From NCBI GenBank assembly GCA_937893205.1, contig CALBJU010000274.1:1-31728 (forward strand): DNA of 31,728 nt. Reading direction: 5' to 3'. Positions 487 to 28,672 of the stretch are shown piece by piece. Within the stretch, counting starts at the first letter, position 1. Every line of letters starts with the position of its first letter. The notes under the pieces are model-generated. The model was not told where the DNA came from. It was given only the letters and a program-made list of their open reading frames with translations, and made no database searches. This stretch comes from an uncultured Bacteroidota bacterium. Its GTDB lineage: Bacteria > Bacteroidota > Rhodothermia > Rhodothermales > UBA10348. The translations under genes and the position numbers were made by a program.

Positions 487-540
487 ACGGACGTACTCAC
501 TTTGATTGACCTGCAGATTCGCTCCCACTCCTGATCGCTT

Positions 541-6119: not shown

Positions 6120-6146
6120 AAAGCTTCCCCCGTGACGGGATAGGGA

Positions 6147-7382: not shown

Positions 7383-7392
7383 TAGGTAGTGG

Positions 7393-7824
7393 TCATGATG
7401 AGGATGACTTCCGACGCGATCTGATAATTGCTCCGAAAACAATCAGCGGCATCATCGTGACAATCATCGCGATTCACATCCAGTCGGGGATGGTCCCGGA
7501 TATTTCCGGATCTGTCATTCCGTAGACGAATCCTAACAACTGAAATCCAGCCAGCGCCAGGCCGTATGAGACCTCAGACTTTCCTGCGATCAAGGCGGCG
7601 ACGTATCCACCAAGAAAGGCTGCGCCGCCGTTATAGAAAAGTTTGGCGACCAGTACTCCGGATCTGTTTCGAACGGCAAAGTATGCCTCCTGGTCGGTGA
7701 GAATGCCACCATTGAGCACTGCGATGAGGACGAATTCGATGGTCTCAGCCACAAAAGTGATCACCATCATGCCGATGAGAATACTGGCAACGCTCCTGGC
7801 CGCTCCCGTCAAGATTGGTTTCAT
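7393..7824 (-). pseudogene. Small multi-TM membrane protein interrupted by an in-frame TGA at 7474-7476
   Basis: The ORF reads ...PEISGTIPDWM*IAMIVTMMPLIVFGAIIRSRRKSSS*. The in-frame continuation encodes another hydrophobic helix with a basic tail and stops at 7393, 10 nt before the DUF418 start. Confidence 0.6.
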
Positions 7825-8112
7825 TACCTGGATTAAAAGGGGGTTCGATAATTCGAGGTCTTGAGCAATGTAATGGTTGCTTCGCCTGGTGTCAGGGCTA
7901 TTATGGTCGGTCGAATCGATCTACCGAAGGATCTTTCCTATTTTCATGCCCATCAGTTCAGTCCAGAATGCATGGTTCGTGGAAACAGGACTCAAGATTG
8001 ATCTGCCTCAATCCGAAAATGAGCATGTATCGCACACGGTAACAATGGTGTACGAGCGGTGACTTGCCGGTCTTTGGTTTCAGATTCTCGTTCTTCACGA
8101 CCAGCACAGCAT

Positions 8113-10656: not shown

Positions 10657-10692
10657 AGTTGTAAAGGGTCTTTCACGGCCCATAAAAACCCT

Positions 10693-11123
10693 ATGCAGCT
10701 AACAACGCTGGATCTGTTCGCTTTCGTCTCGTTTATCCTTTTCGTAATAGGGGTCTCACTCTACGCCGGACGGAAAGAGGAGACCGATGAGGATTATTTT
10801 CTGGCCGGGCGAAATCTATCGTGGTGGCTCATTGGATTTTCTCTGATCGCGTCCAATATTTCCACCGAGCACTTCGTCGGGATGGCCGGACGTGGCTATG
10901 AACTCGGACTTGCGATTGCCTCCTACGAGTGGATGGCCGCCGTTACGCTCGTCATTGTGGCCCTCTTTTTTCTGCCGCGTTTCTTGCGCGCTGGCATTTT
11001 ACCATCCCCGAATATCTCGAGTATCGATACAGCGTGGCGGCTCGGACCCTTATGGCCCTCCTCATGATGGTGATCTATATTTTTGTTGCGCTGGCTGCCG
11101 TCCTCTATTCGGGTGCACTGGCG
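10693..11123 (+). pseudogene. Sodium:solute symporter (SSS, vSGLT-like), 5' fragment with a frameshift
   Basis: DYFLAGRNLSWWLIGFSLIASNISTEHFVGMAG and AIASYEWMAA motifs. The frame shifts at the T4 run 10997-11000 (adding one T gives AGI-FTIPEYLEYRY). Homology ends at LYSGALA after ~144 codons, whereas the family is normally ~500 aa or more. Confidence 0.88.
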
Positions 11124-11188
11124 AGGCCCGTACCAAGAAAAACAATGACTGATATGACGACAAATCGAGGGAAAGTAGAGGTCTGCAT
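11105..11188 (-). pseudogene. 5' remnant of a secreted protein (signal peptide only)
   Basis: The ATG at 11188 gives MQTSTFPRFVVISVIVFLGTGLA (basic n-region, hydrophobic core, small residues). It then runs into antisense SSS sequence and stops at 11105. Confidence 0.45.
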
Positions 11189-11237
11189 GGCGGCGTTATT
11201 ATAATTTAACTGGGGAAGTGTAACCGATAATCATAGA

Positions 11238-11269
11238 TGGGTCTGTATCTGGGTCTGTATCTGGGTCTG
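11238..11269. repeat. 12-bp tandem repeat (TGGGTCTGTATC x2.7)
   Basis: TGGGTCTGTATC TGGGTCTGTATC TGGGTCTG read directly. Confidence 0.85.
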
Positions 11270-11478
11270 GTCGCGGTAGTTGAAAAATGATAGGTGAGTG
11301 GGCGGTAGCTCTGCTGGACGATCACCAACCTGGGAATATGATCGGAATTTCTCTGCAGATACTCAAAATAATCTGTCAGGAAGCAGAAAGGACTAAATTA
11401 CATAGCCTGTCATTCACGTTTGCGAGAGCGCCACGCTCGTATTATTCTTCGCCCAGTAACACCAGACAGGGTATCATT

Positions 11479-12339
11479 TTGATCACAAAACGTATTTCTA
11501 CCGATCAAATCCTCGCCAATCTTAAGGCGAAAGTAGATCAGCGTATTCCGATAATGATTTCTTCAGCTGGAAGCGGGTTGGTAGCCAAATTGCTGGAAAA
11601 ATGTGGTACGGACTGCGTGAACACGTTTTCGGGTGCACGACTGCGCGGCAATGGCATGGGCACGATGGCCATGATGTGGCCCATTCTGGATTCGAATCGA
11701 CAAACGCTCGATTACACCCGCGAGGACATAATGCCCGCGATGGAGGGCAAAGCCTTCGTGTGCGCGTGCCTCAATGCGAATGATCCACTGAAAGACATGC
11801 GCATGGTGTTGCAGGAGTGTAAAGACATGGGCGTCCAGTCTGTCTCCAATATCGGCCCCTCCATTTCATATGTCGATCATGATTCGGAGATCTATAAGGT
11901 GCTGACATCCGCCGGTATCACGCTGCAGAACGAAATTGACATGCTGAAGCTGGCAAGGGAAGAGATGGATATGGTTACGATCGGACTGGGCTTCACGCTC
12001 GAAGACTCGATCGCAGTCTGCGAGAAGGCCAGACCTCACATTTTCTGTTACCACGCTGGCACTACGAAAGGGGGGCTGAAGGGTTATGACAGCGGTTTGA
12101 CCATTGAGCAAACTGCCGAGCAGACAGAGTATGCCTACCAGAAGTGTCGGGAAGTCCACCCGGACGTGATTCTGATTGCTCATGGCGCTGCGATGGAGAA
12201 TCCGGCTGATGCTCAGTACATGTTGGACAATACGTCGGGCCATGGATTCTGGACCGGGTCCTCGACCGAGCGTTTGCCCATCGAGCGGGCGGTCACCGAG
12301 GCCGCATCAGAGTTCGCCAGCCTGCGTTTCTCCAATTAA
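11479..12339 (+). CDS. TIM-barrel signal-transduction / phosphoenolpyruvate-hydrolase-like family protein (divergent)
   Basis: ILANLKAKV..RIPIMISSAGSGLVAK, ANDPLKDM, CYHAGTTKGG, LIAHGAAM and GSSTERLPIERAV match the family pattern, and the gene is adjacent to a Tm-1-like gene. The TTG start at 11479 was chosen by family length (~286 aa) and is uncertain. Confidence 0.85.
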   Translation: MITKRISTDQILANLKAKVDQRIPIMISSAGSGLVAKLLEKCGTDCVNTFSGARLRGNGMGTMAMMWPILDSNRQTLDYTREDIMPAMEGKAFVCACLNANDPLKDMRMVLQECKDMGVQSVSNIGPSISYVDHDSEIYKVLTSAGITLQNEIDMLKLAREEMDMVTIGLGFTLEDSIAVCEKARPHIFCYHAGTTKGGLKGYDSGLTIEQTAEQTEYAYQKCREVHPDVILIAHGAAMENPADAQYMLDNTSGHGFWTGSSTERLPIERAVTEAASEFASLRFSN

Positions 12340-12372
12340 TCTGCTTTTCTCAAATTAACCCAGGCGCGAAGA

Positions 12373-13590
12373 ATGAAAACCATCGCGATTTTAGCCACGC
12401 TCGACACGAAAGCCGCAGAAGCCGACTTCATGCGGAGCGAAATCGAGGCTCTGGGTGGAGAAGCCATGCTCATCGACATCGGGGTCATTGGTGAGCCGGG
12501 GGTAGTAGCGGATGTGTCCAGGGAAGAAATCATCGAAGCGGGGGGTGGTTCACTGGCGGAATTGCTCGACAATCCGAGCCGTGCGAAGGCCAGCCCATTT
12601 GTGATAGCCGGCGCGACGAAAACGATGCTAAAGCTCCAGGAATCCGGCGCCATTGATGCCGTCGTAACGCTTGGTGGAACGCAGGGGACATCCACCTGCG
12701 CGCCCGTCCTACAGGCGCTTCCGTACGGATTTCCCAAGGTGATGCTCTCAACGGCAGCATCCGGAGATACGTCGCCGTTTGTTGGAATCAAGGACATCAC
12801 CATGATGTTCGCCGTGAGCGATATTCTTGGTCTTAACGTGTTCTCCCGCAAAATATTAGCGAATGCTGCGGCGTGCGCCTGGGGTATGGCCCAGGTTGAG
12901 AGAAGCATAACCAGATCGACTGCCAAGGGAGTCATAGGAATGACCAATCTGGGTGTGTTGACCCAGGGAGCGATGCACGCGCTGACCGTATTCGAGGCCG
13001 CTGGATATGAGGTGATCACCTTCCACGCCATTGGAGCGGGTGGAGAGGCCATGGAGCAGATGATGAAAGAGGGTATCATCACTGCAGTCTTTGATTATGC
13101 GATGGGTGAAATAGCTGATGGAGTATATGGAGTGCTCCGCGCCTCAGGACCCGAACGGCTTACCGTGGCTGGCAAACTTGGACTGCCCCAGGTTATCTGT
13201 CCAGGAGGCTCCGAACATCTCGGTATTCTTGTCAGTGAGCCCAACAAGGTCCCCGACGGCTGGGACGACCACCAAATTGTCTGGCACTCACCATTCGTTT
13301 TCGTTCCGCGCTTGAATGCAGATCAGCAGGCCCGTGTAGCGGAAGCAATCGGCGAGCGGCTCGAACACACGACGGGGAATGCCGTTTTTCTGATGCCGTT
13401 GAAAGGAGTGAGCAGTTACTCGGCAAAGGGTGGTGCCCTCTATAATCCGGAACTGGACCAGATCTACTGGGACTTGCTACAGCGTAATCTTCCTGATACG
13501 ATAACGGTCGAAGCACTCGATTATAATGCCGAGGACCCGGCCTTTGTCGAATACGCGGCCGAAAAATTGATAGAGATGATCGAGGCCTGA
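12373..13590 (+). CDS. Tm-1-like ATP-binding domain protein (UPF0261)
   Basis: MKTIAILATLDTKAAE, GGTQGT, LPYGFPKVMLST, DITMMFAVSDILGLN, FHAIGAGGEAME and PQVICPGG; 405 aa. Confidence 0.92.
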   Translation: MKTIAILATLDTKAAEADFMRSEIEALGGEAMLIDIGVIGEPGVVADVSREEIIEAGGGSLAELLDNPSRAKASPFVIAGATKTMLKLQESGAIDAVVTLGGTQGTSTCAPVLQALPYGFPKVMLSTAASGDTSPFVGIKDITMMFAVSDILGLNVFSRKILANAAACAWGMAQVERSITRSTAKGVIGMTNLGVLTQGAMHALTVFEAAGYEVITFHAIGAGGEAMEQMMKEGIITAVFDYAMGEIADGVYGVLRASGPERLTVAGKLGLPQVICPGGSEHLGILVSEPNKVPDGWDDHQIVWHSPFVFVPRLNADQQARVAEAIGERLEHTTGNAVFLMPLKGVSSYSAKGGALYNPELDQIYWDLLQRNLPDTITVEALDYNAEDPAFVEYAAEKLIEMIEA

Positions 13591-13599
13591 GGAGTCCCC

Positions 13600-14220
13600 T
13601 CAGACTTTTTCCGGTCGAAACAGGCGATCGCAGCAGTTCAGCAGGATGGACGCGGCGTGTCCAAGGCTGTTTCCGTAGGCCATTACGCCGTCTTCGTGGC
13701 CACCCATGATGACGAGTTGTTTTGAGGGTCGCTCTTTCGCGGTAAGCAGCCTGATGATCTCGTACGCCATTTCCGGAGTTCCGTAGGTGATGTGTGGCGA
13801 TGTGGTAGGCAACTCATTGCAGTACGTATTCCAGAGGTACGCGTTGTGGATGTGAATCACAGCGCCAATGGATCTCGATGCGGTGTAGAAGGCCGCATGG
13901 CTCATCGTCTCGGAGGACGCCGTGATGGGACCGATACACGACACGCGGTTTTCTTCAAAATTGTAGTCCAGTATTCGGGTGAAATGCTCCCGCCCGAGTT
14001 CCCGGACGTTTCCAGTCGAGGCCCCGGTGATGAGGAACTCACGCGGAGGATTGTCCCGTACGCTGATATTCCCGTATCCGACACCGTCGGGAAGGGCGCC
14101 GATCAGCCCGACCTTGTACATCTGCTGCCGCCACTCACTGAGCGTGCGGATCTTATGCCAACTCACGGGCGGACCCTCGGTCCAATCGGTGTTGAATTTG
14201 ATATATCCTTCGTCGTGCAT
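13600..14220 (-). CDS. Class II aldolase/adducin family protein
   Basis: DEGYIKF, GYGNISVR, FLITGAST, ASSETMSH, VIHIH and a distal GHEDG give the Glu plus three-His metal site of the class II aldolase fold. Start moved to the ATG at 14220. Confidence 0.88.
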   Translation of the reverse strand: MHDEGYIKFNTDWTEGPPVSWHKIRTLSEWRQQMYKVGLIGALPDGVGYGNISVRDNPPREFLITGASTGNVRELGREHFTRILDYNFEENRVSCIGPITASSETMSHAAFYTASRSIGAVIHIHNAYLWNTYCNELPTTSPHITYGTPEMAYEIIRLLTAKERPSKQLVIMGGHEDGVMAYGNSLGHAASILLNCCDRLFRPEKV

Positions 14221-14227
14221 CGGACGC

Positions 14228-15346
14228 CTAATCTCTTTTATCTGGAAGTAGCACATCCAGGCTGCGCATGATAGCAGTATTAATAAAGTACTTATCTCGA
14301 TGTATTTGAATCGAGGTCAGGATGCCAAGTTTTTCAAGCTGATTCAGGTAGCGGGAAGCCGTGACTCGCCCAGCGATTCCTGCGTCGACGAGATGGCCAA
14401 TCTTGCAATACGGGTGTTTAAATATGAGGTCGATAAGTTCTCGAGAGTAGCCAGATTTCATCCTGGTTCGAGAGAGATCCGCGGCTTCATCGATCGCCTT
14501 GTTAAGCTGGATAATTGAGGCAAGTGTCCACTTCGATGTTTCTCGAACCCCAGTTAAGATAAACGAGACCCATCCGGCCCAATCTCCTCGTTCAGTCACT
14601 GCTCGTAACCGCGTGTAGTACTCTGAGCGATGAAGAAGAATGTACCGGCTCAGGTAGAGTACTGGATGCTCTAAAAGTCCGCGTTGAATCAGATATAAAA
14701 CATTTAAAATGCGGCCGGTTCGCCCATTACCGTCATAAAATGGATGAATTGCTTCGAACTGGTAGTGTATCAGTGCTAGACAAATTACCGGATCTAATTC
14801 CTTGTTTTCATGGATAAAAACTTCGAGAGCAGCAAGTTTTTTGCGAATGAGAGCTTCACCGGAGGGAGGGGTGTAAATAATGGTGCCACTCTCAGGGTTG
14901 GAAATGACTGTGCCCATTTGCTGTCGAATACCAGCCTCCGTATTGCGAAGCTGTTGTTGGATGGATACCAACAAGTTTGTAGTGATCAGGCCATTTGCGT
15001 TCATCTTATCCATCCCCATCTTCATGGAGAGGCGATAGCGGAGAACTTCTTTTGCTGGTCCTGATCCTTCCCAACTTGACGAAATGCCACTCAGGGCATC
15101 TGCCTGGAAAAGCTCATCCTGCGTGGTTACGATGTTTTCGATTTCCGAAGAGTCTTTGCTCTCCTGAAGAGAAATCGTTTCCAGAAGAATATCCGGGTTT
15201 GGTAGCGTGCGGCACGTACCCTTCAACTCAGCCAGTGCAGTTCTGGCTTCAATGGTAAGCTGAATGATCTCGCGAGATTCGGAAAACGTAGAATCGGGCG
15301 GTAGATCAGGTAAGTCATTAAAGGGTTTTTCCGGTGCGAAGGTCAT
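14228..15346 (-). CDS. Fic family protein (class II type: N-terminal inhibitory motif, C-terminal wHTH)
   Basis: Canonical HPFYDGNGRTGRIL motif, inhibitory SSEIEN motif and an HTH-like C-terminus (RVTASRYLNQLEKLGIL). Start at the ATG at 15346. Confidence 0.93.
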   Translation of the reverse strand: MTFAPEKPFNDLPDLPPDSTFSESREIIQLTIEARTALAELKGTCRTLPNPDILLETISLQESKDSSEIENIVTTQDELFQADALSGISSSWEGSGPAKEVLRYRLSMKMGMDKMNANGLITTNLLVSIQQQLRNTEAGIRQQMGTVISNPESGTIIYTPPSGEALIRKKLAALEVFIHENKELDPVICLALIHYQFEAIHPFYDGNGRTGRILNVLYLIQRGLLEHPVLYLSRYILLHRSEYYTRLRAVTERGDWAGWVSFILTGVRETSKWTLASIIQLNKAIDEAADLSRTRMKSGYSRELIDLIFKHPYCKIGHLVDAGIAGRVTASRYLNQLEKLGILTSIQIHRDKYFINTAIMRSLDVLLPDKRD

Positions 15347-15371
15347 GCGCTTTCCGTGTACATGAGGCATA

Positions 15372-15408
15372 TGTCATGTACATAATAACGAAAAAAATAG
15401 ACATGACA
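15372..15408. promoter_or_regulatory. Inverted repeat TGTCATGT-N21-ACATGACA upstream of fic (candidate operator)
   Basis: A perfect 8-bp inverted repeat is read directly. Further ACATG/CATGT pentamers and the palindrome ATGTACAT (15376-15383) cluster here. Function is inferred only. Confidence 0.35.
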
Positions 15409-15423
15409 AACATTTGATCTTCA

Positions 15424-15453
15424 ATTCGATATGATTCGATATGATTCGATATG
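15424..15453. repeat. 10-bp tandem repeat ATTCGATATG x3
   Basis: Three perfect copies in the divergent fic/sulfatase intergenic region. Confidence 0.9.
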
Positions 15454-15578
15454 TATACGTTTGAACGAGCGAAAATAGCAGACAACTCCATGCTGGTTGG
15501 ACAGACGCCTCCTTATGATGACTTTCTGCTACTTTAGGAGCAAAATTGCCCACCATGTCAACTAAGCCCAATTCGATC

Positions 15579-17048
15579 ATGCACTATTTCTCGGTTCGGC
15601 GGACGCTGCCCGTCACGGTGTTATTGGTTCTCGCGCTCTCTGCCTGTCGTGTCGACCAAACGGTGGAGCGGCCCAATATTCTGTTTATTTTTTCAGATGA
15701 CCAGCGTGCAGATGCCGTCGGGGCGTATGGTAATCAGTTCGTCAGTACACCTTCGATAGATGAGCTTTCGCGCGTCGGATTCAATTTTCGAGAGGCGCAC
15801 ATCATGGGCTCCATTCATGGCGCCGTGTGCGCGCCGAGCCGGGCCATGTTGATGAGCGGCCGCAGCCTCTATCATGTTTATGACAAACTGGATACGGTTG
15901 CGACTTTTCCAGAACAACTACGAAACAGCGGATATGTGACGTTTGGAACGGGAAAATGGCATCAGAGTCGGGAATCGTTCGCCCGGAGCTTTTCAGATGG
16001 TAAAGACATCTTTTTTGGAGGAATGAGTGATCACGATGCCGCTCCGGTTCAGGACCTCCTGGCCGACGGGCAATTCACAGAGATTGTGCGCAAAGGATTT
16101 TCGACGGACGTGTTTGCCGACGCTGCGATCGACTTTATAGACCGGCATATGGAATCCGATACGACGGCGCCGTTCCTTGCATACGTCTCCTTTACCACAC
16201 CGCACGATCCTCGGACTCCGAAGCCGGAATTCATGACAATGAACCTGGAGGACCGACCGCCTCTTCCGCCCAATTATCTGCCCGTGCATCCTTTCCACAA
16301 TGGATGGATGACGGGTAGGGACGAACGGTTGGCTGCATGGCCCCGCCCTGCGGAAGATGTTCGTAGCCAACTGGCGGAGTATTACGGTCTGATAACCCAC
16401 ATGGACGCCCGGATCGGAGACTTGATCGATGCGCTCGAAAGCAACGGGCTCAGCGAGAACACCATCGTGATTTTTGCGGCCGACAACGGCCTCGCACTGG
16501 GCAGCCATGGTCTGCTGGGGAAACAGAGCCTTTATGAACACAGCACGCACGTTCCGCTGATTATTGCGGGTCCCGGCATTGAATCGGGCTCCTCAGATGC
16601 TCTGGTCGTGCTCTATGACCTGTTTCCGACCATTTCGACGATGACAGGGTTCGAAATGCCCAGCGGGGTCGATGGCCATGACCTTACTGATCTCATGAGA
16701 GGCGATTCTGATGGTCCGCGAGACGTTTTGTACACAACCTTTCAAAACATTCATCGCGCTGTGAGGGATGACCGGTGGAAACTGATCCGCTATCCACGAA
16801 TCGATCGCATCCAATTATTTGACCTGGAGAATGACCCGTTCGAAATGAATGATCTCTCGGCCGATACCGCGTACGCCGATCAGGTAAATCGCCTAATGGC
16901 GATCATGGTAGTGGAACACGAAGCCATGGACGACCCACATCCACTTTGGGTCGACTCCCTGGATTCGCAGGAGTTTGATTATTCAGCGATCAACAGGCGA
17001 CCCGATCGTCACCAACCCCAGTGGGTGATCGACAAATACTTTAATTAG
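15579..17048 (+). CDS. Formylglycine-dependent (Cys-type) sulfatase, lipoprotein
   Basis: Lipobox LSAC, RPNILFIFSDDQR, CAPSRAMLMSGR (CxPxR), GKWH, ADNG..GSHGLLGKQSLYE and QLFDLENDPFE. Confidence 0.93.
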   Translation: MHYFSVRRTLPVTVLLVLALSACRVDQTVERPNILFIFSDDQRADAVGAYGNQFVSTPSIDELSRVGFNFREAHIMGSIHGAVCAPSRAMLMSGRSLYHVYDKLDTVATFPEQLRNSGYVTFGTGKWHQSRESFARSFSDGKDIFFGGMSDHDAAPVQDLLADGQFTEIVRKGFSTDVFADAAIDFIDRHMESDTTAPFLAYVSFTTPHDPRTPKPEFMTMNLEDRPPLPPNYLPVHPFHNGWMTGRDERLAAWPRPAEDVRSQLAEYYGLITHMDARIGDLIDALESNGLSENTIVIFAADNGLALGSHGLLGKQSLYEHSTHVPLIIAGPGIESGSSDALVVLYDLFPTISTMTGFEMPSGVDGHDLTDLMRGDSDGPRDVLYTTFQNIHRAVRDDRWKLIRYPRIDRIQLFDLENDPFEMNDLSADTAYADQVNRLMAIMVVEHEAMDDPHPLWVDSLDSQEFDYSAINRRPDRHQPQWVIDKYFN

Positions 17049-17084
17049 TGGCGCGAGCGCGGACGTCGAGCTACGCGGCCGGTT

Positions 17085-17805
17085 CTACGACTGCAGTGTG
17101 CGTTCGAGGTAAGCCTTCAGCCTACTCCAGGCGTCGAGCCTAGGAGCTGATCGCGTTTCCAGGTCCTGATCGACACGAAGCCAGAATCCGTGACTGACTT
17201 CGTCATAGATGTGGAGACCGTTTTCTATTCCTGCAGCCTCGAGAGCGGCTTCGAAGGCTTCGACATGCTCGGGCGCCGGGCCTCCGTCGAGTTGCGCAAA
17301 CGTGCCATATACTTCATGACTCATGGAAGCCAGCACTTCCGGGTCGTCGACAAGGCGGCCGTAAAAGATGGCAGTAGCTTCGTGATCGACGCCGTCGAGG
17401 CCGAATGAGAGCGATTCCACCTCCAAAGCACCAACCCATGGTGCCGACACGTCCAGTTACATCTTCGCGAGCACGCAGGAGTGATACGGCCGCATCGAGG
17501 TTTGCGATGACGCCGGGCATGTCTTCGCCAGCAGCCGTCATGAGGGCGATGTTCTCATCGCGGTTGGTACCAAGCTCTCCCGAGTAGAGGTCAGCAGCTA
17601 GCGTGACGTAGCCCTCGGCTGCAAAATCGTCCGCGAGTTGGCGCACGCGGTCTGTCAACCCATTCCACTCGTGGATGATCACGAGAGAAGGAAATGGGCC
17701 GTCGCCTTCCGGTACGGAGAGATAACCTGTCGTAGCCATGTCGCCTTCGAGGTAATGCACATCCTCGCCCTCGAGGTCTCCGCCGTTGCCGATGATGGCC
17801 GGGGG
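17085..17805 (-). pseudogene. Dienelactone hydrolase family protein, 5'-truncated and frameshifted
   Basis: IIHEWNGL, GYVTLAADLY and GWCFGG lie in one frame; AIFYG, LDGG and SHGF lie in another. The frame break is at a (CT)n tract, 17407-17411, where +2 nt restores GGIALSFG. There is no credible start; the frame runs into the serine hydrolase fragment. Confidence 0.85.
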
Positions 17806-17806
17806 A

Positions 17807-18448
17807 TGGACCGGTGATGGATATGGCGCCTGGATACGCTCGTCCGACACCGAAGCCTTCTTGATCGACCAGCCCCTGCTGTACCCTGCAGGAACGGTGC
17901 ACTCGTATAATTCTGCAGCCGTCCATCTGCTGAGTGTGCTGACCTCCGAACTGGTGGGTCAATCGTTCATCAGCTATGCGGACAGTCGACTCTTTCATCC
18001 GCTCGGGATAATCGATCGAGAGTGGGAGATGTTTGATTCTGGATACCCAAATGGCGGTGCGGGAATCGATCTCCACGCGCGAGACCTTGCCAAGATCGGT
18101 CAACTCTTTTTACAGCGTGGCATGTCCGGTGATCGCCAGATCATACCTGGAGCGTGGGTTGATGAAGCCACCTCCTCCAAGTTTGCGTTCACGCTGAATC
18201 ACGCGGGTCTGACCAATATTTCGTACGGATACCTGTGGTGGACAGACGAGACCTACGGCGTCTCCTCGTACTTCGCGTGGGGATACGGCGGACAGTACAT
18301 CTATGTATCTCCCGCAAGAAATCTTGTGGTGGTTATAACGACCAGTCATCAGAACGTGCACCAGGAATTCGGGGGCGAAAACGAGACGGCGACAGCGGCA
18401 CTCGAAGTGATTTCGCGACACATTTTGGGAGCAGTGAGTCAGGAATAG
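17807..18448 (+). pseudogene. Serine hydrolase (beta-lactamase/AmpC-like family), 3' fragment lacking the SxxK region
   Basis: PAGTVHSYNS, LFHPLGI, ARDLAKIGQLFLQRG, IIPGAWVDEAT, YGYLWW and FAWGYGGQYIYVSPARNLVVV are present. There is no SxxK motif and no N-terminal part. The left boundary is uncertain by about 20 nt. Confidence 0.85.
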
Positions 18449-18486
18449 TCCGGCGGCCAGTCATGTAGATGCAGAGCTCTACCCGA

Positions 18487-18515
18487 TTGCGATCCGGCTG
18501 AGAGACGGATCGCAA
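18487..18515. terminator. Hairpin between convergent genes (possible terminator)
   Basis: TTGCGATCCG-N9-CGGATCGCAA, a 10-bp perfect stem with no clear U-tract. Confidence 0.45.
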
Positions 18516-18631
18516 CGAGTGACAAGTACTTGATCGAAATGTCACCATTCGACCAGAAACACTCTGCGAGCGCGTCTTCGTGTCGAACCAGCTTAATCCG
18601 GGCTATCCGTGGAGATGGGAGTCGCCACTAC

Positions 18632-21004: not shown

Positions 21005-21181
21005 GATCTGAATCTTGGAGAGCTGTTTCGCGCGATATCGGTTGCCAAGAGGTCAGTATACGATTCAAAAAGGCGTTTTTCACGCAATCTGGAGGGCCTT
21101 GAAGAGGCGATGGGGCCTGCTTGTTGTCGTCCATTTCATGCATTCTGAGCTGGATCGCGGAAACGTCAACAAATAACTGAT

Positions 21182-21271
21182 TCAGTCGACAGACCGCCCA
21201 AAGAGCATGCGCCACCGGACATCTTCGACCGTGCGAGAGCGCTCATTGCCCTCTGAGTCCTCATAGTCCTC
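21182..21271 (-). pseudogene. 3' remnant of an unidentified gene
   Basis: Minus-strand frame EDYEDSEGNERSRTVEDVRWRMLFGRSVD* is protein-like, ends at the TGA at 21182 and abuts the ABC permease fragment. I do not recognise the family. Confidence 0.4.
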
Positions 21272-21571
21272 GAACGACGCACGAGAGAGATGGGGATCCG
21301 CAAAGCGCTGGGAGCATCCGGCAGATCCGTGGTGATGTTGCTCTCCAAAGACCTCGCGCGTCTGGTTCTGATTGCCAACGTCATCGCCTGGCCCGTTGCC
21401 TACTATGCGGCAGACAGCTGGCTTCAGAACTATCCGTTCCGCTCTGAAATAGCACCCTGGATCTTCATTTCTGCTACACTTGGAGCGATGTTGATCGCCT
21501 GGCTAAGCATCAGCTACCGAGCACTCCAGGTGTCACGAGCCAATCCTGTGGAAGCGCTAAGGTATGAGTGA
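21272..21571 (+). pseudogene. FtsX/MacB-like ABC transporter permease, last ~99 codons only
   Basis: ERRTREMGIRKALGAS, LVLIANVIAWPVAYY, WLQNYPFR and RANPVEALRYE are the standard C-terminus. An in-frame TGA at 21254 lies upstream and there is no upstream homology. Confidence 0.9.
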
Positions 21572-21664
21572 GGGGTGGTTGGGTGTGAAGGCGGTGCTCG
21601 ACGCATCTTTTACTAGCGTCCAGATGGTAGATTGGCGGCTCTACCCGGAATAACCTCTGAGCCC

Positions 21665-24001
21665 ATGCCGTCGATCAAACCATTCTTGAGCATTGTTGGA
21701 TTATGTCTGTTCGCTCTCGCGCCGTCTCTTGCACAAGAGCGGTCTGTTTCTCGCAGGTCTGATCTGGAGATCGCCATTCCGAAATTGGAAATTCCCGTGA
21801 TGTCCATCGACGGATACTTGAATGAAGAAGTATGGAGCCAGGCCGCAGTGACAGGCGATTTCATGCAGTATACCCCGGTGGATGGAAGGCCGGCTGAAGA
21901 CGGCACGAAGGTTCTGCTGTGGTACGATTCAAGCGCTCTTTACATCGGGATTGAGGCGGAAGAGATCCACGGAGAAGTACGTTCCACCCTGGCTGACCGC
22001 GACAATCTGGACAACGACGATCGCATACTGATCGTGTTGGATACGTATGACGATCAGCGTTCGGCTTTTGCTTTCATCGTCAATCCGATAGGACAGCAAG
22101 CTGATGGTACGCTCAGAGACGCATCGTCTTCTAGTGGGTTTGGACGCGGCGGCGGGGAAGCGTTCTCGGTCGATGAAAACCCGGACTATGTGTTCACCTC
22201 TCAAGGACGACTGACCGAATCTGGCTACGTTGTGGAGATTGAAATCCCCTTCAAGAGTCTCCGTTTCGGCAAATCTGCATCACAAAATTGGGGATTTAAC
22301 GTGCTTCGCAAAGTCCAACACTCGGGCTACTGGTCGTCATGGAGTGGCGTCCGGCTGGGTGGAGCTTCGTTTCTCGCGCAAAATGGCTCGCTTTCTGGAC
22401 TCTCAGAGTTGAGCCGCGGACGCGTTCTGGATATCAATCCGGAAATCCGTGGAGCCTTGAAAAGAGGTCCCGATCCAGAAACGTTTGAGAGAGACACGAC
22501 CGACCCATTAGGGTTGAACGTACGATATGGCCTCTCCTCGAATATGGTTCTGAATGCGACCCTGAATCCGGACTTTTCGCAAATTGAGGCCGATGTAGTC
22601 CAGATTAACTACGATCCACGCCGGTCTGTATCCTTTCCGGAAAAACGCCCGTTCTTCCTGGATGGCATCGAAATGTTCAGGACACCGACCCGGCTTATTT
22701 ATACCCGGAGCATCGCCAATCCACTTGCCGCGGTTAAAGTGGCAGGAAAGTCTGGATCCACTACCATCGCGGCGTTATCAGCCGTGGACAACGCTGGACC
22801 CTCGATCGCTGATGTGGATGCGGCCTACGTGAACGCGATCCGTCTGAAAAGAGACCTGGGCGCACAAAACAGCGTGGGCGTGGTCTACACGGACCGAATG
22901 CACGATGACTGGGCAAATCGGGTGTTCGCCATCGATGGAAATGTTATTGCGAGGGACAAGTATTCCTTTCGCGCGCAAACAGGATTCAGTTCCACGTCCG
23001 ACATTGATGGCCTGGCACCTATGTGGAACGCGAGCGCCAGTGTATCCACCCGGAAATGGTCCGGCGGACTCAACACGAGCGGTTATCATGCCGATTTCGA
23101 CCCCGCAGTCGGCTTTCTGAGTCGTGGCAACCAAGTGTCTATCGGCGCAAATGTCGTGAGAACCATTTACGGAAACGAAGGCGATTTTCTTGAAAGGTCA
23201 ACCCTTTCGTTCCGCCTGTCGGGGGCGTGGGATTACGACGGCTTCATGAACGGCGACGATCCAGAAGATATCAGATTCTATCCGACCTTTAGTTTCCAGA
23301 TGCGGGGCGGATGGGGTCTGAGAATTTTTACCTGGATAGAGACATTCGGCTATCCTGGCAACTTCTTCACCCACTACTACCTCAAAACGGATGCTGGTTT
23401 TGAGCCTTACAAAGGCGTTCCGAATCTGTTCAACATCGGTCCGATGATCACCCTTTCGACTCCTCAGTTCAATCGCTTCTCAGGATTTATCCGATATGCA
23501 TTTGGCCGGGATCCCAACTATGACGAGTGGGCCGACGCAAACATCCGGACTATTGAATTGGAAGGCAGGTACACGCCTACAGATCAGTTACGCTTCGAGC
23601 TGAGATATGACCATCAGCAGCATTTTAGGGCTTCGGACAAATCACTGGTTTCGTTGAGCCGTGTTCCGAGGCTCAAAATCGAATATCAGGTGACACCAAC
23701 CTTGTTTGTTCGCTTTGTCGGTCAGTATCGCTCGTTATACAAAGATGCTCTCCGGGATGACTCGAGGACCGATCTTCCCATTTATTTCCTTTCGGACGAC
23801 GGGAGCTACGTGAAGGCGGACAGCCGGCGTACGAACAATATCCAGGCGGACTTCCTGCTTTCCTATCGTCCGACACCTGGGACTGTCGTATTCGTCGGGT
23901 ACGGAACAGCGATGAGCGAAGAGGACACGTACCGATTTCGCAATCTGACGCGCCAAGCCGACGGCTTCTTCATGAAGTTGAGCTACCTGTTCCGAGTTTA
24001 A
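21665..24001 (+). CDS. DUF5916 / carbohydrate-binding family 9-like outer-membrane protein
   Basis: IDGYLNEEVW, DTYDDQRSAFAFIVNPIGQQ, YVVEIEIPFKSLRF, LNATLNPDFSQIEAD, FPEKRPFFLDG and the C-terminal FMKLSYLF. Confidence 0.9.
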   Translation: MPSIKPFLSIVGLCLFALAPSLAQERSVSRRSDLEIAIPKLEIPVMSIDGYLNEEVWSQAAVTGDFMQYTPVDGRPAEDGTKVLLWYDSSALYIGIEAEEIHGEVRSTLADRDNLDNDDRILIVLDTYDDQRSAFAFIVNPIGQQADGTLRDASSSSGFGRGGGEAFSVDENPDYVFTSQGRLTESGYVVEIEIPFKSLRFGKSASQNWGFNVLRKVQHSGYWSSWSGVRLGGASFLAQNGSLSGLSELSRGRVLDINPEIRGALKRGPDPETFERDTTDPLGLNVRYGLSSNMVLNATLNPDFSQIEADVVQINYDPRRSVSFPEKRPFFLDGIEMFRTPTRLIYTRSIANPLAAVKVAGKSGSTTIAALSAVDNAGPSIADVDAAYVNAIRLKRDLGAQNSVGVVYTDRMHDDWANRVFAIDGNVIARDKYSFRAQTGFSSTSDIDGLAPMWNASASVSTRKWSGGLNTSGYHADFDPAVGFLSRGNQVSIGANVVRTIYGNEGDFLERSTLSFRLSGAWDYDGFMNGDDPEDIRFYPTFSFQMRGGWGLRIFTWIETFGYPGNFFTHYYLKTDAGFEPYKGVPNLFNIGPMITLSTPQFNRFSGFIRYAFGRDPNYDEWADANIRTIELEGRYTPTDQLRFELRYDHQQHFRASDKSLVSLSRVPRLKIEYQVTPTLFVRFVGQYRSLYKDALRDDSRTDLPIYFLSDDGSYVKADSRRTNNIQADFLLSYRPTPGTVVFVGYGTAMSEEDTYRFRNLTRQADGFFMKLSYLFRV

Positions 24002-24132
24002 CACGGCTCGAGGCCGCTCCTCTGGCGTTGTCGTGCCCGTCATGTGTTTGCACTCTCGCATTATTGATAGTACCGTTAAAATCTCCCTACTGTCGGGAAT
24101 CCACCACCGGGTACTAAACGAAGAGGCCCCTC

Positions 24133-25971
24133 GTGAATACTACTCTATCCCGCTATGCCGCATTTCTAGTAGCAGTCAGCCTTGCCTGGATCTCGACTTC
24201 GTGCGTGCTCGCGCAGGATAATCAGGGCGAACCAGGTGAGAATCAGGCGAGTATGGAGGAGGCAGTCGCCTTCATTGCTCAGGTGGAAAATGAACTTGAA
24301 GATCTCGGGTTGAAGCTGCTTCGGGCGAAGTGGGTACAATGGACTTACATCACGCACGACACTGAACAAATTGTGGCAGACGCCAGCGACGCATTTGGCG
24401 CCGCCTCAATCCAGTTTGTCAAGGACGCCGGGCGCTATGATGATGTGGAACTGCCGTCCGAACTCCGACGAAAATTCGACATCCTCCGATCCCTGCTCGT
24501 GACGCCGGCTCCGGGAGATCCAGCCCTCAACGCGGAGGTATCGAGACTCTACACCGAGCTCACTTCGATGGCTGCTCGACCTGAGTACTGTGATGAAGAC
24601 GGGACCTGTTACGAAATTGACGAACTCAACCGGATCATGAGGACGAGCCGAGATCCAGACAGCCTGAAGTTCGCCTGGCAAGTTGGTAGACTCGCGACAC
24701 CACCCATGCGCGAAAAGTACACGCGCTTTGCAGAACTGATGAATGAAGGGGCTCGCGAGCTTGGTTTTGCCGATCTGGGTGAGATGTGGCGCTCCACCTA
24801 TGATATGGATCCAGACGATTTTATCTATGATTTGGACCGGGTTTGGGAGCAGGTAAAGCCCCTATACGTCGCCCTGCATTGCTTAACGCGTGATACCCTT
24901 CAAGATTTGTACGGTGAAGAGGTTGTGCGCGAGGGCGAACCGATACCCGCGCACCTGTTGGGAAGCATGTCCAGCTCGGGATGGGCGAATCTATTTGAAC
25001 TTATGGTGCCCGAAAACGCAGATCCCGGTTACGATCTGACTGCAATATTGCAGGAGAAAGGACTGGACGAACGCGGTATGGCTGAGTATGGCGAGCGGTT
25101 TTTCACATCACTGGGCCTCGATCCTCTACCCGATACGTTCTGGGAGCGCTCCATGTTCAAGCGGCCAGCCGATCGAGACGTCGTGTGCGGTGCTAGTGCG
25201 TGGGACCTGGATGACAAGGACGATATTCGCATAAAGATGTGTATCGAGATCACCGGAAGGAGCCTGCAGACGGTGCATCACGAAATCGGTCATAACATCT
25301 ACCAGCGGGCGTATCAAGACCAGCCTACTCTTTTCAGGGCGAGCGCCAACTACGGATTTCACGAGGCTCTGGGTAGCACGATGGCACTGTCTCTGACCCC
25401 GCGATATCTGGTAGAGACAAATCTGTTGGAACGGGAGCCTGAAAATGCCAGTGATATTGCGGTGCTCCTTCGCAGTGCGCTGGGCAAGGTGATCTCAGTG
25501 CCGAATGGCCTGATGATCGACCGGTGGCGCTGGAAAGTGTTCAGTGGTGAAATCGGGCCAGAAGACTACAACCGCGGATGGTGGGAGCTTCGAGAAGAGT
25601 TCCAGGGAATCGCACCGCCGGTAAAACGTCCTGAACATCTTTTTGACCCTGGAACGAGACGCCATATCCCAACAAACGTCCCGTACACGAGGTATTTTGT
25701 GTCGCAGATCGTCCAGTTCCAATTCCACCGGGCACTCTGTGAGATTGCTGGCCAGGAAGGTCCCCTACACCTTTGTTCGATATACGGAAGCAAAGAGGCT
25801 GGCGCGCGGCTGAAAGTGTTCATGGAAATGGGAAGACAGTATCCATGGCCGGATGCACTCGAAGCCCTGACTGGAGAGCGAAACATGGACGCTTCTGCAC
25901 TGCTCGAGTATTACGAACCGCTCCGACGCTGGCTCGACGAGCAGAACAGCGGTAAAATGTGCGGATGGTAG
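24133..25971 (+). CDS. M2 family metallopeptidase (ACE-like peptidyl-dipeptidase homolog), divergent active-site pocket
   Basis: GTG start and signal peptide. PIPAHLLG, LPDTFWERSMF, IRIKMC, HHEIGH, GFHEALG, DRWRWKVFSG, VPYTRYF, QFQFHRALC and CSIYGSKEAG are present. Confidence 0.93.
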   Translation: MNTTLSRYAAFLVAVSLAWISTSCVLAQDNQGEPGENQASMEEAVAFIAQVENELEDLGLKLLRAKWVQWTYITHDTEQIVADASDAFGAASIQFVKDAGRYDDVELPSELRRKFDILRSLLVTPAPGDPALNAEVSRLYTELTSMAARPEYCDEDGTCYEIDELNRIMRTSRDPDSLKFAWQVGRLATPPMREKYTRFAELMNEGARELGFADLGEMWRSTYDMDPDDFIYDLDRVWEQVKPLYVALHCLTRDTLQDLYGEEVVREGEPIPAHLLGSMSSSGWANLFELMVPENADPGYDLTAILQEKGLDERGMAEYGERFFTSLGLDPLPDTFWERSMFKRPADRDVVCGASAWDLDDKDDIRIKMCIEITGRSLQTVHHEIGHNIYQRAYQDQPTLFRASANYGFHEALGSTMALSLTPRYLVETNLLEREPENASDIAVLLRSALGKVISVPNGLMIDRWRWKVFSGEIGPEDYNRGWWELREEFQGIAPPVKRPEHLFDPGTRRHIPTNVPYTRYFVSQIVQFQFHRALCEIAGQEGPLHLCSIYGSKEAGARLKVFMEMGRQYPWPDALEALTGERNMDASALLEYYEPLRRWLDEQNSGKMCGW

Positions 25972-26254
25972 AAGAGAATGCACTGGAGCTACCGTTCCAC
26001 TCATTGCGTTGTCGTAATGAAGAGGTCATAATGATGAGATTGTTTGAGTGGCAGCATTATCTTTGTAGTGGAAATCTTCGGAGTGGTCAGTCAATACATA
26101 TCGGCGCCATGCCGAACGTCGTGGGCATTGAAGTGAGCTTCGAGTTGGCCAGCCGACATTGTTCCACGGATGATCACCTCGACTATTATTTCCACATTCC
26201 ACGTGGACACTTCGCACTCACGACTTCAAAGGAATAATCAACTCATTCGGAAAA

Positions 26255-26869
26255 ATGCGCATAACACCACTTTTATTTGTTGCTCTACTTTTAGCCCCTT
26301 CATTAGCCATCGCTCAGATGCGGCCTGCCTCACCTCGCGGGGAAGCTGCCACACAGGTTGGCGGATCCTACGATGACGGAGATTACGGTGGCGGAAGTTG
26401 GGTGGCTGTCGATTATGGCCGACCAATTCTTCGCGGTCGCACTATGATCTTCGGCGAAGGAGAATCCTACGGCGAGGTCGTCAATTCTGACGCGCCGGTG
26501 TGGCGGGCAGGTGCAAATAAGACTACCGTGTTTACGACCGAAACTGATCTGATCTTCGATGGTGAACATCTACCTGCCGGTGAATATTCGTTCTTCATTG
26601 ACCTGGCAGAAAATGAATGGACGCTGATCTTGTCGAATCACATAGTGAGGCCAGGTTTTCGCTCAGAAGAAGCCGGGCTCTGGGGATCATTTGGATACGT
26701 GGAAGAGAAGGACGCGCTACGTGCCCCAATGGCGCTGAAAGAAGCTCCCATGTCATTCGATCAGCTAACGATTGCCTTCGTAGATATGACTAAAGATGGT
26801 GGAACACTGGCCGTCATGTGGGAGGATGTATTGGCAACTGTCGAGTTCTCCGCGGCGAATACCCACTAG
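26255..26869 (+). CDS. DUF2911 domain-containing secreted protein
   Basis: Signal peptide, PASPRG, VDYGRPILRGR.IFG, VWRAGANKTT, LPAGEYSFFI, FDQLTI and LAVMWE. Confidence 0.92.
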   Translation: MRITPLLFVALLLAPSLAIAQMRPASPRGEAATQVGGSYDDGDYGGGSWVAVDYGRPILRGRTMIFGEGESYGEVVNSDAPVWRAGANKTTVFTTETDLIFDGEHLPAGEYSFFIDLAENEWTLILSNHIVRPGFRSEEAGLWGSFGYVEEKDALRAPMALKEAPMSFDQLTIAFVDMTKDGGTLAVMWEDVLATVEFSAANTH

Positions 26870-26945
26870 TCCACAGAACGGGCGAGGATGCGTAGCTCCA
26901 ATGGACCCTTTCTCTCGCTGGTCTGACGCTCAGTGCGAAAAGTAA

Positions 26946-26978
26946 AAAGGCGAATCGGCGTGAAGCCGATTCGCCTTT
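26946..26978. terminator. Bidirectional rho-independent terminator
   Basis: AAAGGCGAATCGGC-GTGAA-GCCGATTCGCCTTT, a 14-bp perfect stem with an A-tract on the left and a T-tract on the right, between convergent genes. Confidence 0.85.
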
Positions 26979-27044
26979 CTAGGTACCATAATCGTAGTTC
27001 CATCTATTTTGGACTTGCGACAGAAGCAAGTTTCGAAGCTCTAT

Positions 27045-27082
27045 CATATCAGATGAATAAGAGCATACCAGATGAATAAGAG
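27045..27082. repeat. 19-bp tandem duplication (1 mismatch)
   Basis: CATATCAGATGAATAAGAG / CATACCAGATGAATAAGAG. Confidence 0.8.
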
Positions 27083-27091
27083 CCGTTGGGA

Positions 27092-27400
27092 TTAAGCTCC
27101 GGCCTGTTCCCATGCCCACCTACCAAGAACTCCAACTGCAGAGGCTGCAGCCAGAGCAGCGAGATTGGTTAGAATATCGGTCAAGTACCCGCCAACGGCT
27201 GGAATCTCACTCAATGCTCCTGCGACAATCGAAAGACCGATCGCAATTACAAAGGTTCTCATGAGATCTCCAGTGTCACGTTGCACGCCAAGAGCAAGTC
27301 CCAGAGCGGCGGTGATGGCGGCTGCATACGGGATTTCAACAAATGCCGTCAATATGACAAACACCAGGCCGACACGAAGAGTGGTTTTCAAATAGTCCAT
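27092..27400 (-). CDS. Hypothetical small membrane protein (102 aa)
   Basis: ATG start, about four hydrophobic segments and IPAVGGYLTDIL; converges on the terminator at 26946. Confidence 0.7.
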   Translation of the reverse strand: MDYLKTTLRVGLVFVILTAFVEIPYAAAITAALGLALGVQRDTGDLMRTFVIAIGLSIVAGALSEIPAVGGYLTDILTNLAALAAASAVGVLGRWAWEQAGA

Positions 27401-27599
27401 GTTTTCCTCAGGATATCAGTTCTTGATTACGAGAATTCCTCCCCGCGACTAGTTTATTCAATCGAAGTCCAAAGACAAAATATTTTGTGACACTATTTAT
27501 ACATCTTTTGATTCACAGAGGTAGAATCTCACCCAATAGAGTTTGAAAAAGGGTTGTTGAACCGTGCTTTAAGGGGATTGTCCTGGAAGCTCGACTTTC

Positions 27600-27694
27600 T
27601 GGCGTGCCCGGGCGGAATTATTCGGCGCTTCGCGCCTCAACCGTCGGAACGCTGTGCGTTCCGACGGTCGAACCCCCGACCTCCTGGTCCATAG
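27600..27694 (-). mobile_element. att-like 3' half of tRNA-Arg (ACG-like) with a 50-nt insertion in the T-loop
   Basis: The minus strand reads CTATGGA (anticodon loop) CCAGG AGGTC GGGGG TTCGA [27667-27618 insertion] TT CCGCC CGGGCAC G CCA. The 5' anticodon stem and D-arm are absent. The loop is one change from Arg CTACGGA. Confidence 0.75.
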
Positions 27695-28109
27695 GTTGAC
27701 GATTAAGCAAATATGACTGAAAAAGAGGCTTAATTGCTCAAATAAGACCGATTACTGGGAAAGTAAAAATAATGGGTGACAGAGAAGGCACAAGCAAAGT
27801 CCCAGGATCTGAATTGAACAGGCGTGCGGTTCGACTCTGCTCACAAGTCAAATAGAATGACCGTAAGTCCATGGGTTTAAATAGATAACGCAAAGGATTG
27901 CTTTAGCAGGTTAAGGATTGAGTTGAGGAAGCAGAAAGCATTCCGTCGCTCCTCATCATGTAGCTAGGAACCCCCGGGTCCCATTTCGGATGTACCGATA
28001 GATCAGTCTGGACGGGTAAACATATTTATTTGATCGGAAAATCGAGACTACATAAAATTCAGACCGTGAGAGCCCCGCTGTGCGCTGGTTACATACACCC
28101 TGAATGCGC

Positions 28110-28154
28110 AGAGGATTTTAAGTCCGTTGCGTCTACTTATTCCGGCATCTCCGC
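28110..28154 (-). pseudogene. Degenerate tRNA-Leu(TAA) 5' half
   Basis: The minus strand reads GCGGAGA TG CCGGAATAAGTAGACG C AACGGA CTTAAAA TCCTCT. This is a Leu-type D-arm (compare GCGGAATTGGTAGACGC) with a TAA anticodon loop, but the stem is mismatched and no T-arm or acceptor 3' strand follows. Confidence 0.6.
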
Positions 28155-28261
28155 AAAGCCGTTTCGACGGTGACTGCTGGTGTTTTGGATCAACTCTTTC
28201 GAGTTAGAATTGTACTTCTGAGAGGTTCCTCGTTTCTTGCGTCAACCCAAGCCCTTGAACC

Positions 28262-28490
28262 ATGGTTGGCAAGTCCTTATCGCACTACAAGATCCTCGAA
28301 GAACTGGGCCGTGGCGGCATGGGGATCGTCTACAAGGGCGAGGACACGAAATGGTACCGGCAGATCTGATATTTCTTCGGACGGGCGATATATCGTTACG
28401 TTCGCCTCTGAAATATTCTTGGAGAAGGTAGAACCACCGGGCGTTTCCATTGAGTGGTGGCAAAATTGGGCGTACTCGTTGGACAAATAG
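28262..28490 (+). pseudogene. Ser/Thr protein kinase gene relic with a large internal deletion (N-terminal 30 codons joined out of frame to a PD40/TolB-type C-terminus)
   Basis: MVGKSLSHYKILEELGRGGMGIVYKGEDTK (subdomain I, GxGGMGxVY) breaks at 28351. Another frame gives SDISSDGRYIV...SIEWWQNWAYSLDK*, which resembles the end of kinase-PD40 proteins. Confidence 0.75.
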
Positions 28491-28672
28491 CTGAAGGATC
28501 GGGCGATTGTAGATTCATCCTCGTGGCCCTACTCATAACAAGCACTTTTTGCAGGCTCGGGCCCACAACTATGATTTGATTAACCGGGAATGAATACGCA
28601 CCAAGCCGCCACCGAATCAAGGAGGCCCTCTCGCGCGTTGGGAGCTCACCCAGAATCCAATAGCCATACACC

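Follow-up and report, generated by a model that had tools for sequence, protein, structure and literature searches.

Probable chromosomal deletion scars without mobile elements in an uncultured marine Rhodothermales bacterium

Spontaneous deletions between short direct repeats, formed by slipped misalignment or illegitimate recombination, are well known from the classical Escherichia coli lacI work, and template-switch or fold-back events of the FoSTeS/MMBIR type (fork stalling and template switching/microhomology-mediated break-induced replication) combine a deletion with a short inverted, templated insertion. To our knowledge, the classic streamlined marine genomes contain almost no pseudogenes. 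Here we describe four junctions, J1 to J4, at which gene fragments are joined in a 31,728-nt stretch of DNA from an uncultured Bacteroidota bacterium (GenBank assembly GCA_937893205.1, contig CALBJU010000274.1; the whole of this stretch is hereafter called the window). In our assessment the junctions are very probably genuine chromosomal deletion scars in a natural marine Rhodothermales population, formed with no mobile element involved. The broader setting is deletional bias and pseudogene decay, in which nonfunctional DNA is deleted, remnants are short-lived, and relics acquire small indels; in the parts of the studies drawn on here, the evidence comes mainly from pathogens, symbionts, and reductively evolving genomes (PMC2817411, PMC2916853, PMC6054270).

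The window is the entire contig C274, the longest (31.7 kb) in a marine Rhodothermales metagenome-assembled genome (MAG) of 2.72 Mb in 477 contigs (N50 7 kb, 84.6% complete), and its sequence is present in marine or seawater metagenome runs from at least 12 studies. As reference we used G001, a genome of the same genus (3 contigs, 4.4 Mb, 95% complete) with 87-92% (∼89%) nucleotide identity to the source genome; its contigs are named C2 and C3 in the coordinates below. The population evidence consists of assembled contigs and not of read counts, namely Logan contigs from four independent metagenome runs (X3, X4, X5, and X11) and the Joint Genome Institute (JGI) contig Ga0066376_10002686 (L111). 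Along the stretch, the X11 strain is 0.3-2.5% divergent from the window, and X11 contigs give no cover at ∼14448-16439, a gap from which nothing is concluded.

Pfam matches, six-frame translation, and comparison with G001 place the four junctions and two frameshifts where a preliminary description of this DNA, made from its letters, had located them. An origin as chimeric joins introduced by the assembler, by multiple displacement amplification (MDA), or by binning, with the frameshifts as low-coverage sequencing errors, would be in keeping with the spacing of the junctions, as the pieces between them (3.5-11 kb) are about the size of an ordinary contig here and the window is the longest contig of the assembly; in addition, the two sides of J2 fall on different G001 contigs. 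Every junction, however, is bridged with identical sequence by independent contigs, drawn from four samples in four studies and from the JGI contig, and depth stays level from one side of each to the other. The same frameshifts appear in X3, X4, X5, and L111, and a k-mer assembler would not be misled by an overlap as short as the 11 nt at J1. We therefore regard an artefact as extremely improbable. The idea that the longest contig is an end-to-end concatenation of N50-sized contigs was also considered and is ruled out by the independent Logan contigs. The broken genes have no full-length orthologue or reciprocal fragment elsewhere in the source assembly, although absence from an assembly that is fragmented and 85% complete is not absolute. 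The earlier caution over chimeras thus lapses, as does the prospect that the junctions would lack support outside the assembly or that full-length copies of the genes would turn up within it. A 60-nt query across J1 returned all three of its sampled words in ten runs; we do not count this as evidence.

J1, at 11123, is the junction with the richest population record. Its left side is a sodium:solute symporter relic (10693-11123, plus strand) with ∼143 of 508 codons left, which matches positions 1-109 of the 406 in the Pfam SSF profile and over codons 1-107 is 94% identical in amino acids to the G001 gene at C2:496728-498254. To its right lie, on the minus strand and recognized by six-frame translation, the first ∼22 codons (the signal-peptide region) of a 496-aa beta-lactamase-family gene (11124-11188), the remainder of which is deleted; the G001 counterpart at C2:499490-500980 has a Pfam Beta-lactamase domain. 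The window tracks G001 from 9500 to 11123, up to C2:497159, and from 11113 onward resumes at C2:500875. The loss is 3.7 kb and comprises ∼365 symporter codons, a 412-aa aldose 1-epimerase, and nearly all of the 496-aa serine hydrolase gene. The two blastn flanks overlap at 11113-11123 in the 11-nt sequence GTGCACTGGCG, which occurs once in the window and in G001 flanks the 3.7-kb segment, where the left-side copy matches 10 of the 11 bases.

The JGI contig crosses J1 without gaps, corresponding to window 280-13261 at 99.85% identity. A second deletion allele, allele A, is found in X5 and X11 contigs in which 115 other letters connect 11122 with 11330, and a 62-letter loose end before 11330 in X4 is consistent with it. 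The last 30 of the allele-A letters (taken from the X4 loose end) match C2:497244-497273 with one mismatch, and 115 letters is the exact length of 497159-497273 in G001. Allele A holds 115 nt more of the symporter than the window does and lacks window positions 11123-11329. Because of this extra symporter sequence and this missing segment, neither allele can be derived from the other, and the three genes must have been deleted twice independently. An undeleted allele occurs in X3, where a contig matches the window rightward from 11113 and, to the left of that position, matches C2:500845-500874 (4 mismatches in 30) in the body of the 496-aa gene. J1 is polymorphic in nature, with two separate deletion alleles and an undeleted allele across samples.

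J3 (21097-21277) has the most elaborate structure. The conserved promoter region of an FG-GAP gene is followed by 88 nt of filler (21097-21184), for which no match was found in G001 C3:1984900-1989400 or elsewhere in the source genome. There follow, on the minus strand, the 31 codons that end a 340-aa gene (21185-21277), with 25 of 31 residues identical by tblastn; this piece is inverted relative to G001, as blastn matches 21184-21277 to C3:1988141-1988234 in the opposite orientation. Next, on the plus strand, come the last 100 codons and the stop of an FtsX/MacB-type permease (21269-21571; Pfam FtsX C-terminal fragment at 21290-21571). The permease relic represents codons 788-887 of an 887-aa protein (21269-21568), and 95 of its 100 residues are identical to those encoded at C3:1985008-1987671. 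The permease tail and the inverted piece overlap by 6 nt (GAACGA). Collinearity with G001 (C3:1989225 to 1985307) puts the loss at ∼3.8 kb, which took most of the FtsX permease and the 340-aa gene, and the junction is bridged by contigs from X4, X5 (20604-21712), and X11 (20921-21584). The preliminary description had all four junctions joined base to base; this is correct insofar as no insertion sequence (IS) or terminal repeat intervenes, but J3 has its filler and its inverted 31-codon tail. A loss of ∼3.8 kb together with a 93-nt inverted piece from nearby, the filler, and the 6-nt overlap is what a FoSTeS/MMBIR-type template switch would be expected to leave; J3 would be explained equally well if the 340-aa gene had first been inverted and a single deletion had come afterward, and no source for the filler was found.

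J4, at 28351, had been read as a fusion of two genes. The left part (28262-28351, plus strand) is the opening 30 codons of a gene for a Ser/Thr kinase of the type with a PD40 propeller, with 91% nucleotide identity to C3:1963035-1963124; its positional orthologue is the 897-aa kinase at C3:1960481-1963174, whose domains are assigned by Pfam, and homology ends at 28350. The right part (28352-28490, plus strand, +1 frame) appears to be the last ∼45 codons of a kinase of the same family, as it bears the motif DISxDG...WWxNWAxSL found in G001 kinase C-termini; its weak blastp match covers 40 aa at 35% identity (E = 0.069). Judged by the sequence of these two ends, J4 is an internal deletion of ∼2.5 kb that collapsed a single kinase gene to its extremities. 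Contigs from X11 (21761-29700) and X4 (27628-28487) bridge it. Loose ends in X3 and X4 at 28260, 28296, and 28350, which continue as intact kinases, were considered as an undeleted J4 allele; they are not counted, since paralogues, or other organisms with the same conserved 90-nt start, would look no different.

That conservation is itself unusual. The first 90 nt of the kinase and its upstream leader (window 28184-28351) are 76-91% identical in nucleotides among ∼30 G001 paralogues, and kinase starts in other genera retain 88-91%, compared with 70-75% for ordinary genes, which suggests gene conversion or a shared regulatory leader. Upstream of the kinase relic lies one of the two genomic copies of a 59-nt double-hairpin element (window 27604-27662 and C92:6687-6745, 88% identity), the second of which stands ∼140 nt upstream of a 1011-aa gene that in G001 comes next after the kinase locus. 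One X11 contig extends past the window end and meets the C92 copy, so C92 probably follows C274, and the two hairpin copies bracket the kinase relic and a 961-aa M36-like protease that has no G001 counterpart. ARAGORN and Rfam searches found no tRNA, tmRNA, or Rfam element in the window, including 27600-27694. A neighboring stretch of ∼600 nt (26903-27498) is 87% identical to C3:1965807-1966421 and has no long open reading frame (ORF) in either genome and no Rfam match; it sits inside a gene-poor region of 1.3 kb with low GC content (47%).

J2, at 17805, joins two genes head-to-head. The first is a dienelactone hydrolase (DLH) relic on the minus strand (17085-17805) that retains codons 52-291 of 291, the first 51 codons with the signal peptide being gone. 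Its Pfam DLH match is split across two frames (17085-17850), and tblastn with the 291-aa G001 protein aligns query residues 52-184 and 183-291, with homology stopping at 17805, the position of codon 52. The second is a relic of a beta-lactamase-family serine hydrolase on the plus strand (17792-18448), comprising the C-terminal ∼218 codons (positions 108-323 of 329 in the Pfam profile) and lacking the first ∼160 codons, including the SxxK motif; its alignments begin at residues 156-256 of full-length homologues in five genomes (G008, G012, G014, G002, and G007). A 17-nt candidate microhomology (17789-17805) can be translated as part of either gene, giving PPAIIG on the minus strand for DLH and PMMAGG on the plus strand for the beta-lactamase-family gene; 14 of its 17 bases are identical to the G001 DLH gene. 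The junction is spanned by contigs from X3 (16789-21301), X4 (16761-22774), and X11 (16454-19058). If J2 arose as a deletion, it would have removed the 5′ ends of two divergent genes.

Several observations weigh against that reading of J2. Its two sides lie on different G001 contigs (C2:511638 and C3:∼1993235) and thus lack the collinear flanks seen at the other junctions; G001 has no orthologue of the beta-lactamase-family gene and no relic of it beside C3:1993235. The full-length homologues in the five genomes named above have neither DLH nor FG-GAP neighbors, and the second parent of the microhomology is read only from the MMAGGW motif conserved in G008 and G012. Because the second gene has no G001 orthologue and the flanks are split, the lost span cannot be sized. 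J2 may therefore be a rearrangement breakpoint, with a microhomology resting on one parent. A large inversion or translocation breakpoint between the species, possibly with a small loss, in place of a simple deletion between neighboring genes, would account for the way in which the window follows the C2 plus strand to the left of 17805 and the C3 minus strand to the right of ∼18469, and for the position of the DLH and beta-lactamase homologues on separate contigs in G012. However, no reciprocal junction or missing 5′ fragment was found in the source genome (assembly 85% complete), and the G001 genes beyond J2 on either side (12 kb on the DLH side, 11 kb on that of the FG-GAP gene) have no orthologues at all in the source genome, which fits loss; moreover, G001 is rich in IS and may itself be the rearranged genome. 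We consider a breakpoint of this kind rather unlikely and retain a deletion as the preferred reading of J2.

Taken across the junctions, extra DNA lies between collinear flanks in G001 at J1, J3, and J4, though not at J2, and the genes are truncated with their missing parts absent from the assembly (85% complete). The multi-kb deletions claimed at the outset are thus real, being bridged by independent contigs, and amount to 3.7 kb at J1, ∼3.8 kb at J3, and ∼2.5 kb at J4. As to how the ends met, neither the window as a whole nor the junctions yielded an IS, transposase ORF, terminal repeat, tRNA, or Rfam element in Pfam, repeat, ARAGORN, and Rfam scans, and the IS, terminal inverted repeats, att sites, or tRNAs that IS- or integrase-mediated excision would involve are absent from the junctions. 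End joining by Ku and LigD would require a genome that encodes Ku; Ku (PF02735) was not found in the source genome (85% complete) or in G001 (95%) by a search in which a control genome matched. MutS is present. We propose RecA-independent illegitimate recombination, which would have dropped the intervening DNA and sealed the ends; replication slippage, template switching, and Ku-independent end joining are candidate routes, and short microhomology may have been used where it was on hand, at J1, J2, and J3 and hardly at J4. Microhomology joining, as first suggested, accordingly describes only some of the junctions: it is 11 nt long at J1, likely at J2 (≤17 nt), and short at J3 (6 nt), but near nil at J4 and in J1 allele A (≤2 nt each). 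It is not a general feature.

The likeness to deletions between short direct repeats is closest at J1, which keeps one 11-nt copy, and extends to J3 and probably J2, which lie at short overlaps; recombinase sites and IS are absent. Almost no overlap, in contrast, is seen at J4 or in J1 allele A, and spans of 2.5-3.8 kb are long for simple slippage. Our view of the mechanism is drawn from the sequence only.

Two frameshifts mark the broken genes. The symporter relic carries a −1 frameshift at 10996/10997 (T4 in the window vs T5 in X11), and the DLH relic carries a −2 frameshift at 17410, where the window has one GC and X11 has an additional one (GCGC); both are slippage events in short repeats, with T5 shortened to T4 and GCGC to GC. 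X3, X4, X5, and L111 agree with the window on the frameshifts, and the one at 10997 is carried by these four and absent from X11, a strain that has J2, J3, and J4 with both of the frameshifted reading frames unbroken. The statement that frameshifts are confined to the broken genes stands, since the eleven other window genes align full-length and in a single piece to their G001 orthologues (87-97% amino acid identity). The chance of ∼1% that had been assigned to this clustering under uniform random errors is reproduced by calculation, (2.5/27.5)^2 = 0.8%, but is superseded now that the frameshifts are known to be reproducible strain variants. Strain indels also occur outside genes: X11 has 18 additional nt after 17053 and 7 fewer at 21602, and X3, X4, and X11 have 12 nt more than the window after 28102.

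The strains also bear on the order and age of events. Since X11 has J2 but lacks the DLH frameshift, DLH was truncated first and frameshifted later, and the proposal of decay after breakage holds for this gene. For the symporter, the order is ambiguous: the 10997 frameshift occurs with both J1 deletion alleles (in the window and in X5), which implies recurrent slippage, recombination, or a frameshift that preceded deletion, and so speaks against a simple sequence of loss followed by decay. The ratio of nonsynonymous to synonymous substitution rates (dN/dS), taken relative to G001, lies at 0.02-0.07 in the relics of the symporter, DLH, and FtsX genes and at 0.04-0.30 in the eleven intact genes, so the relics do not show the elevation over intact neighbors expected of relaxed selection; the sole exception is the inverted 31-codon piece (0.36). 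Low values mean that the relics were under purifying selection for nearly all of the time since the split from G001, and hence that inactivation was recent. They point to very recent inactivation and not to continued function, which the truncations and frameshifts make implausible. The relics are no longer under selection and have started to gain slippage frameshifts.

Whether these losses reflect erosion of the whole lineage is a separate matter. Across the window, G001 has ∼10 extra segments of 1.4-4.1 kb, four of which hold kinase genes. About 6 of the 10 have no relic in the window, and the direction of change at these is unpolarized, which counts against reading them as losses; synteny is already broken in other genera, so distant relatives could not polarize the clean gaps. 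Three such gaps illustrate the pattern: at 17049-17082, G001 has a 4.1-kb kinase gene interrupted by IS3, with no relic in the window; at 24006-24047, it has 4.1 kb with a kinase gene interrupted by IS256; and at 25972-26202, it has 4.1 kb with an 896-aa kinase and a 318-aa gene. Insertion sequences recur in G001, as IS256-family (Transposase_mut) genes in several copies and an IS3 OrfB (C2:507188-508015, C3:1977174-1978472, C3:462250-463548, and C2:1387954-1389252), of which the IS3 copy at C2:507188-508015 and the IS256 copy at C3:1977174-1978472 are those that interrupt kinases. In the source genome, contig C416 encodes an IS3 OrfB 87% identical to that of G001.

The source genome has 5 Pkinase matches, where paralogue counts are lower bounds given its incomplete and fragmented assembly; G001 has 50, and the totals for 31 family genomes run from 1 to 50. 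The kinase family may thus have expanded in G001, a further point against erosion. Other contigs give a mixed picture. Over 20 kb of C398, G001 has four extra segments and C398 lacks three FtsX permeases of ∼880 aa; C326 and C257 each face one or two extra G001 segments, and C369 is fully collinear with G001 over 20 kb. The C398 relics are the 74 opening codons of a 550-aa gene (3894-4115) and the final 50 codons of a 292-aa gene (7355-7504), and at C257:945-2219 a 557-aa gene is without codons 67-195.

It could accordingly be held that there is no special erosion here, that the size differences are mostly gains by G001, and that the four scars are ordinary turnover in a variable region. The IS256-type genes repeated inside and between the G001 extra segments, the IS3 inside a kinase, the ∼6 segments without a window relic, and the collinearity of C369 all agree with this, as do kinase counts that roughly track genome size across the family and a DUF418 gene that is present in the window and missing from G001. 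Nevertheless, four relics in 18 kb and at least 2 on C398 prove losses on the source-genome side, the kinase relic lies exactly at the position of an intact G001 kinase, and the two independent J1 deletion alleles argue for continuing loss. Genome sizes estimated from assembly size and completeness are ∼3.2 Mb for the source genome and ∼4.6 Mb for G001. On this evidence we think it possible but doubtful that ordinary turnover with G001 gains is the full account. Of the active genome erosion first proposed, the part that stands is the polarization of the relic-bearing junctions as losses, whereas the other G001 extras are partly G001 gains. The window is a dense example of turnover in variable regions, and erosion of the lineage as a whole is plausible and only partly shown.

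The DUF418 gene (6147-7442, minus strand) corresponds to only 96 nt in G001 (window 6122-7415) and is an indel in the opposite direction. Just beyond J1, in a pair of PEP-hydrolase-like and UPF0261 genes (11479-13590), the UPF0261 protein is 74-78% identical to many marine Akkermansiaceae/Verrucomicrobiales proteins and, at 78-84%, hardly closer to those of other Rhodothermales, so that horizontal transfer of this gene is possible judging from protein similarity.

The same three genes were removed at J1 by two independent deletions of 3.7-3.8 kb with different end points, and together they would form a sugar-uptake module of symporter, aldose 1-epimerase, and serine hydrolase. This raises an adaptive explanation, in which selection favors removal of this module, of sensory kinases, and of permeases, and which would explain why J1 was deleted twice. 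The losses are indeed concentrated in two large paralogous families, and the portion of PMC2916853 drawn on here describes young pseudogenes as being removed faster than the neutral expectation. The undeleted J1 allele persists in X3, however, and the relics and frameshifts match what neutral decay predicts. Two events at a single locus are a small sample, and a prior inactivating frameshift could make both deletions neutral. We hold adaptive loss to be a minority possibility. With similar reserve, we entertain the wider and tentative idea of a free-living pelagic population caught midway in selection-driven streamlining, in which the sugar module was deleted at least twice, separately, among coexisting strains that still include an undeleted allele, and kinases and FtsX permeases are lost locus by locus, independently of IS and Ku, with one template switch. 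Like the classic streamlined genomes, the source genome is marine, and it is smaller than its congener with fewer kinases (5 vs 50); unlike them, its relics are still visible, ∼3.2 Mb is not small, and the size gap is partly due to gains of IS and paralogues in G001.

As far as the accounts of deletional bias considered here go (Kuo and Ochman 2009, 2010), the deletions, short relics, and indels within relics that they describe are all seen here too. The setting differs, in that this is a free-living pelagic Rhodothermales lineage known only from metagenomes, with one locus in three allelic forms and a sister strain free of the frameshifts. No new mechanism or system is revealed, as the process is already known from deletional bias and illegitimate recombination; what this case contributes is population evidence from a marine lineage not in culture. 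For annotation, it matters that the odd gene fusions in this MAG are biology and not assembly error, and that five window genes (the symporter, DLH, the beta-lactamase-family gene, the FtsX permease, and the kinase) are pseudogenes. The window offers a small, well-documented case of gene loss in an uncultured marine bacterium, in which losses are multi-kb, free of IS, sometimes associated with microhomology, and so recent that the relics still look selected, and in which three J1 alleles segregate in nature. Such loci could help to estimate deletion rates and to distinguish neutral from adaptive loss in the ocean. If the streamlining reading were true, the density of relics and the allele series would provide a direct, datable view of the rate and spectrum of deletion in a wild marine bacterium.

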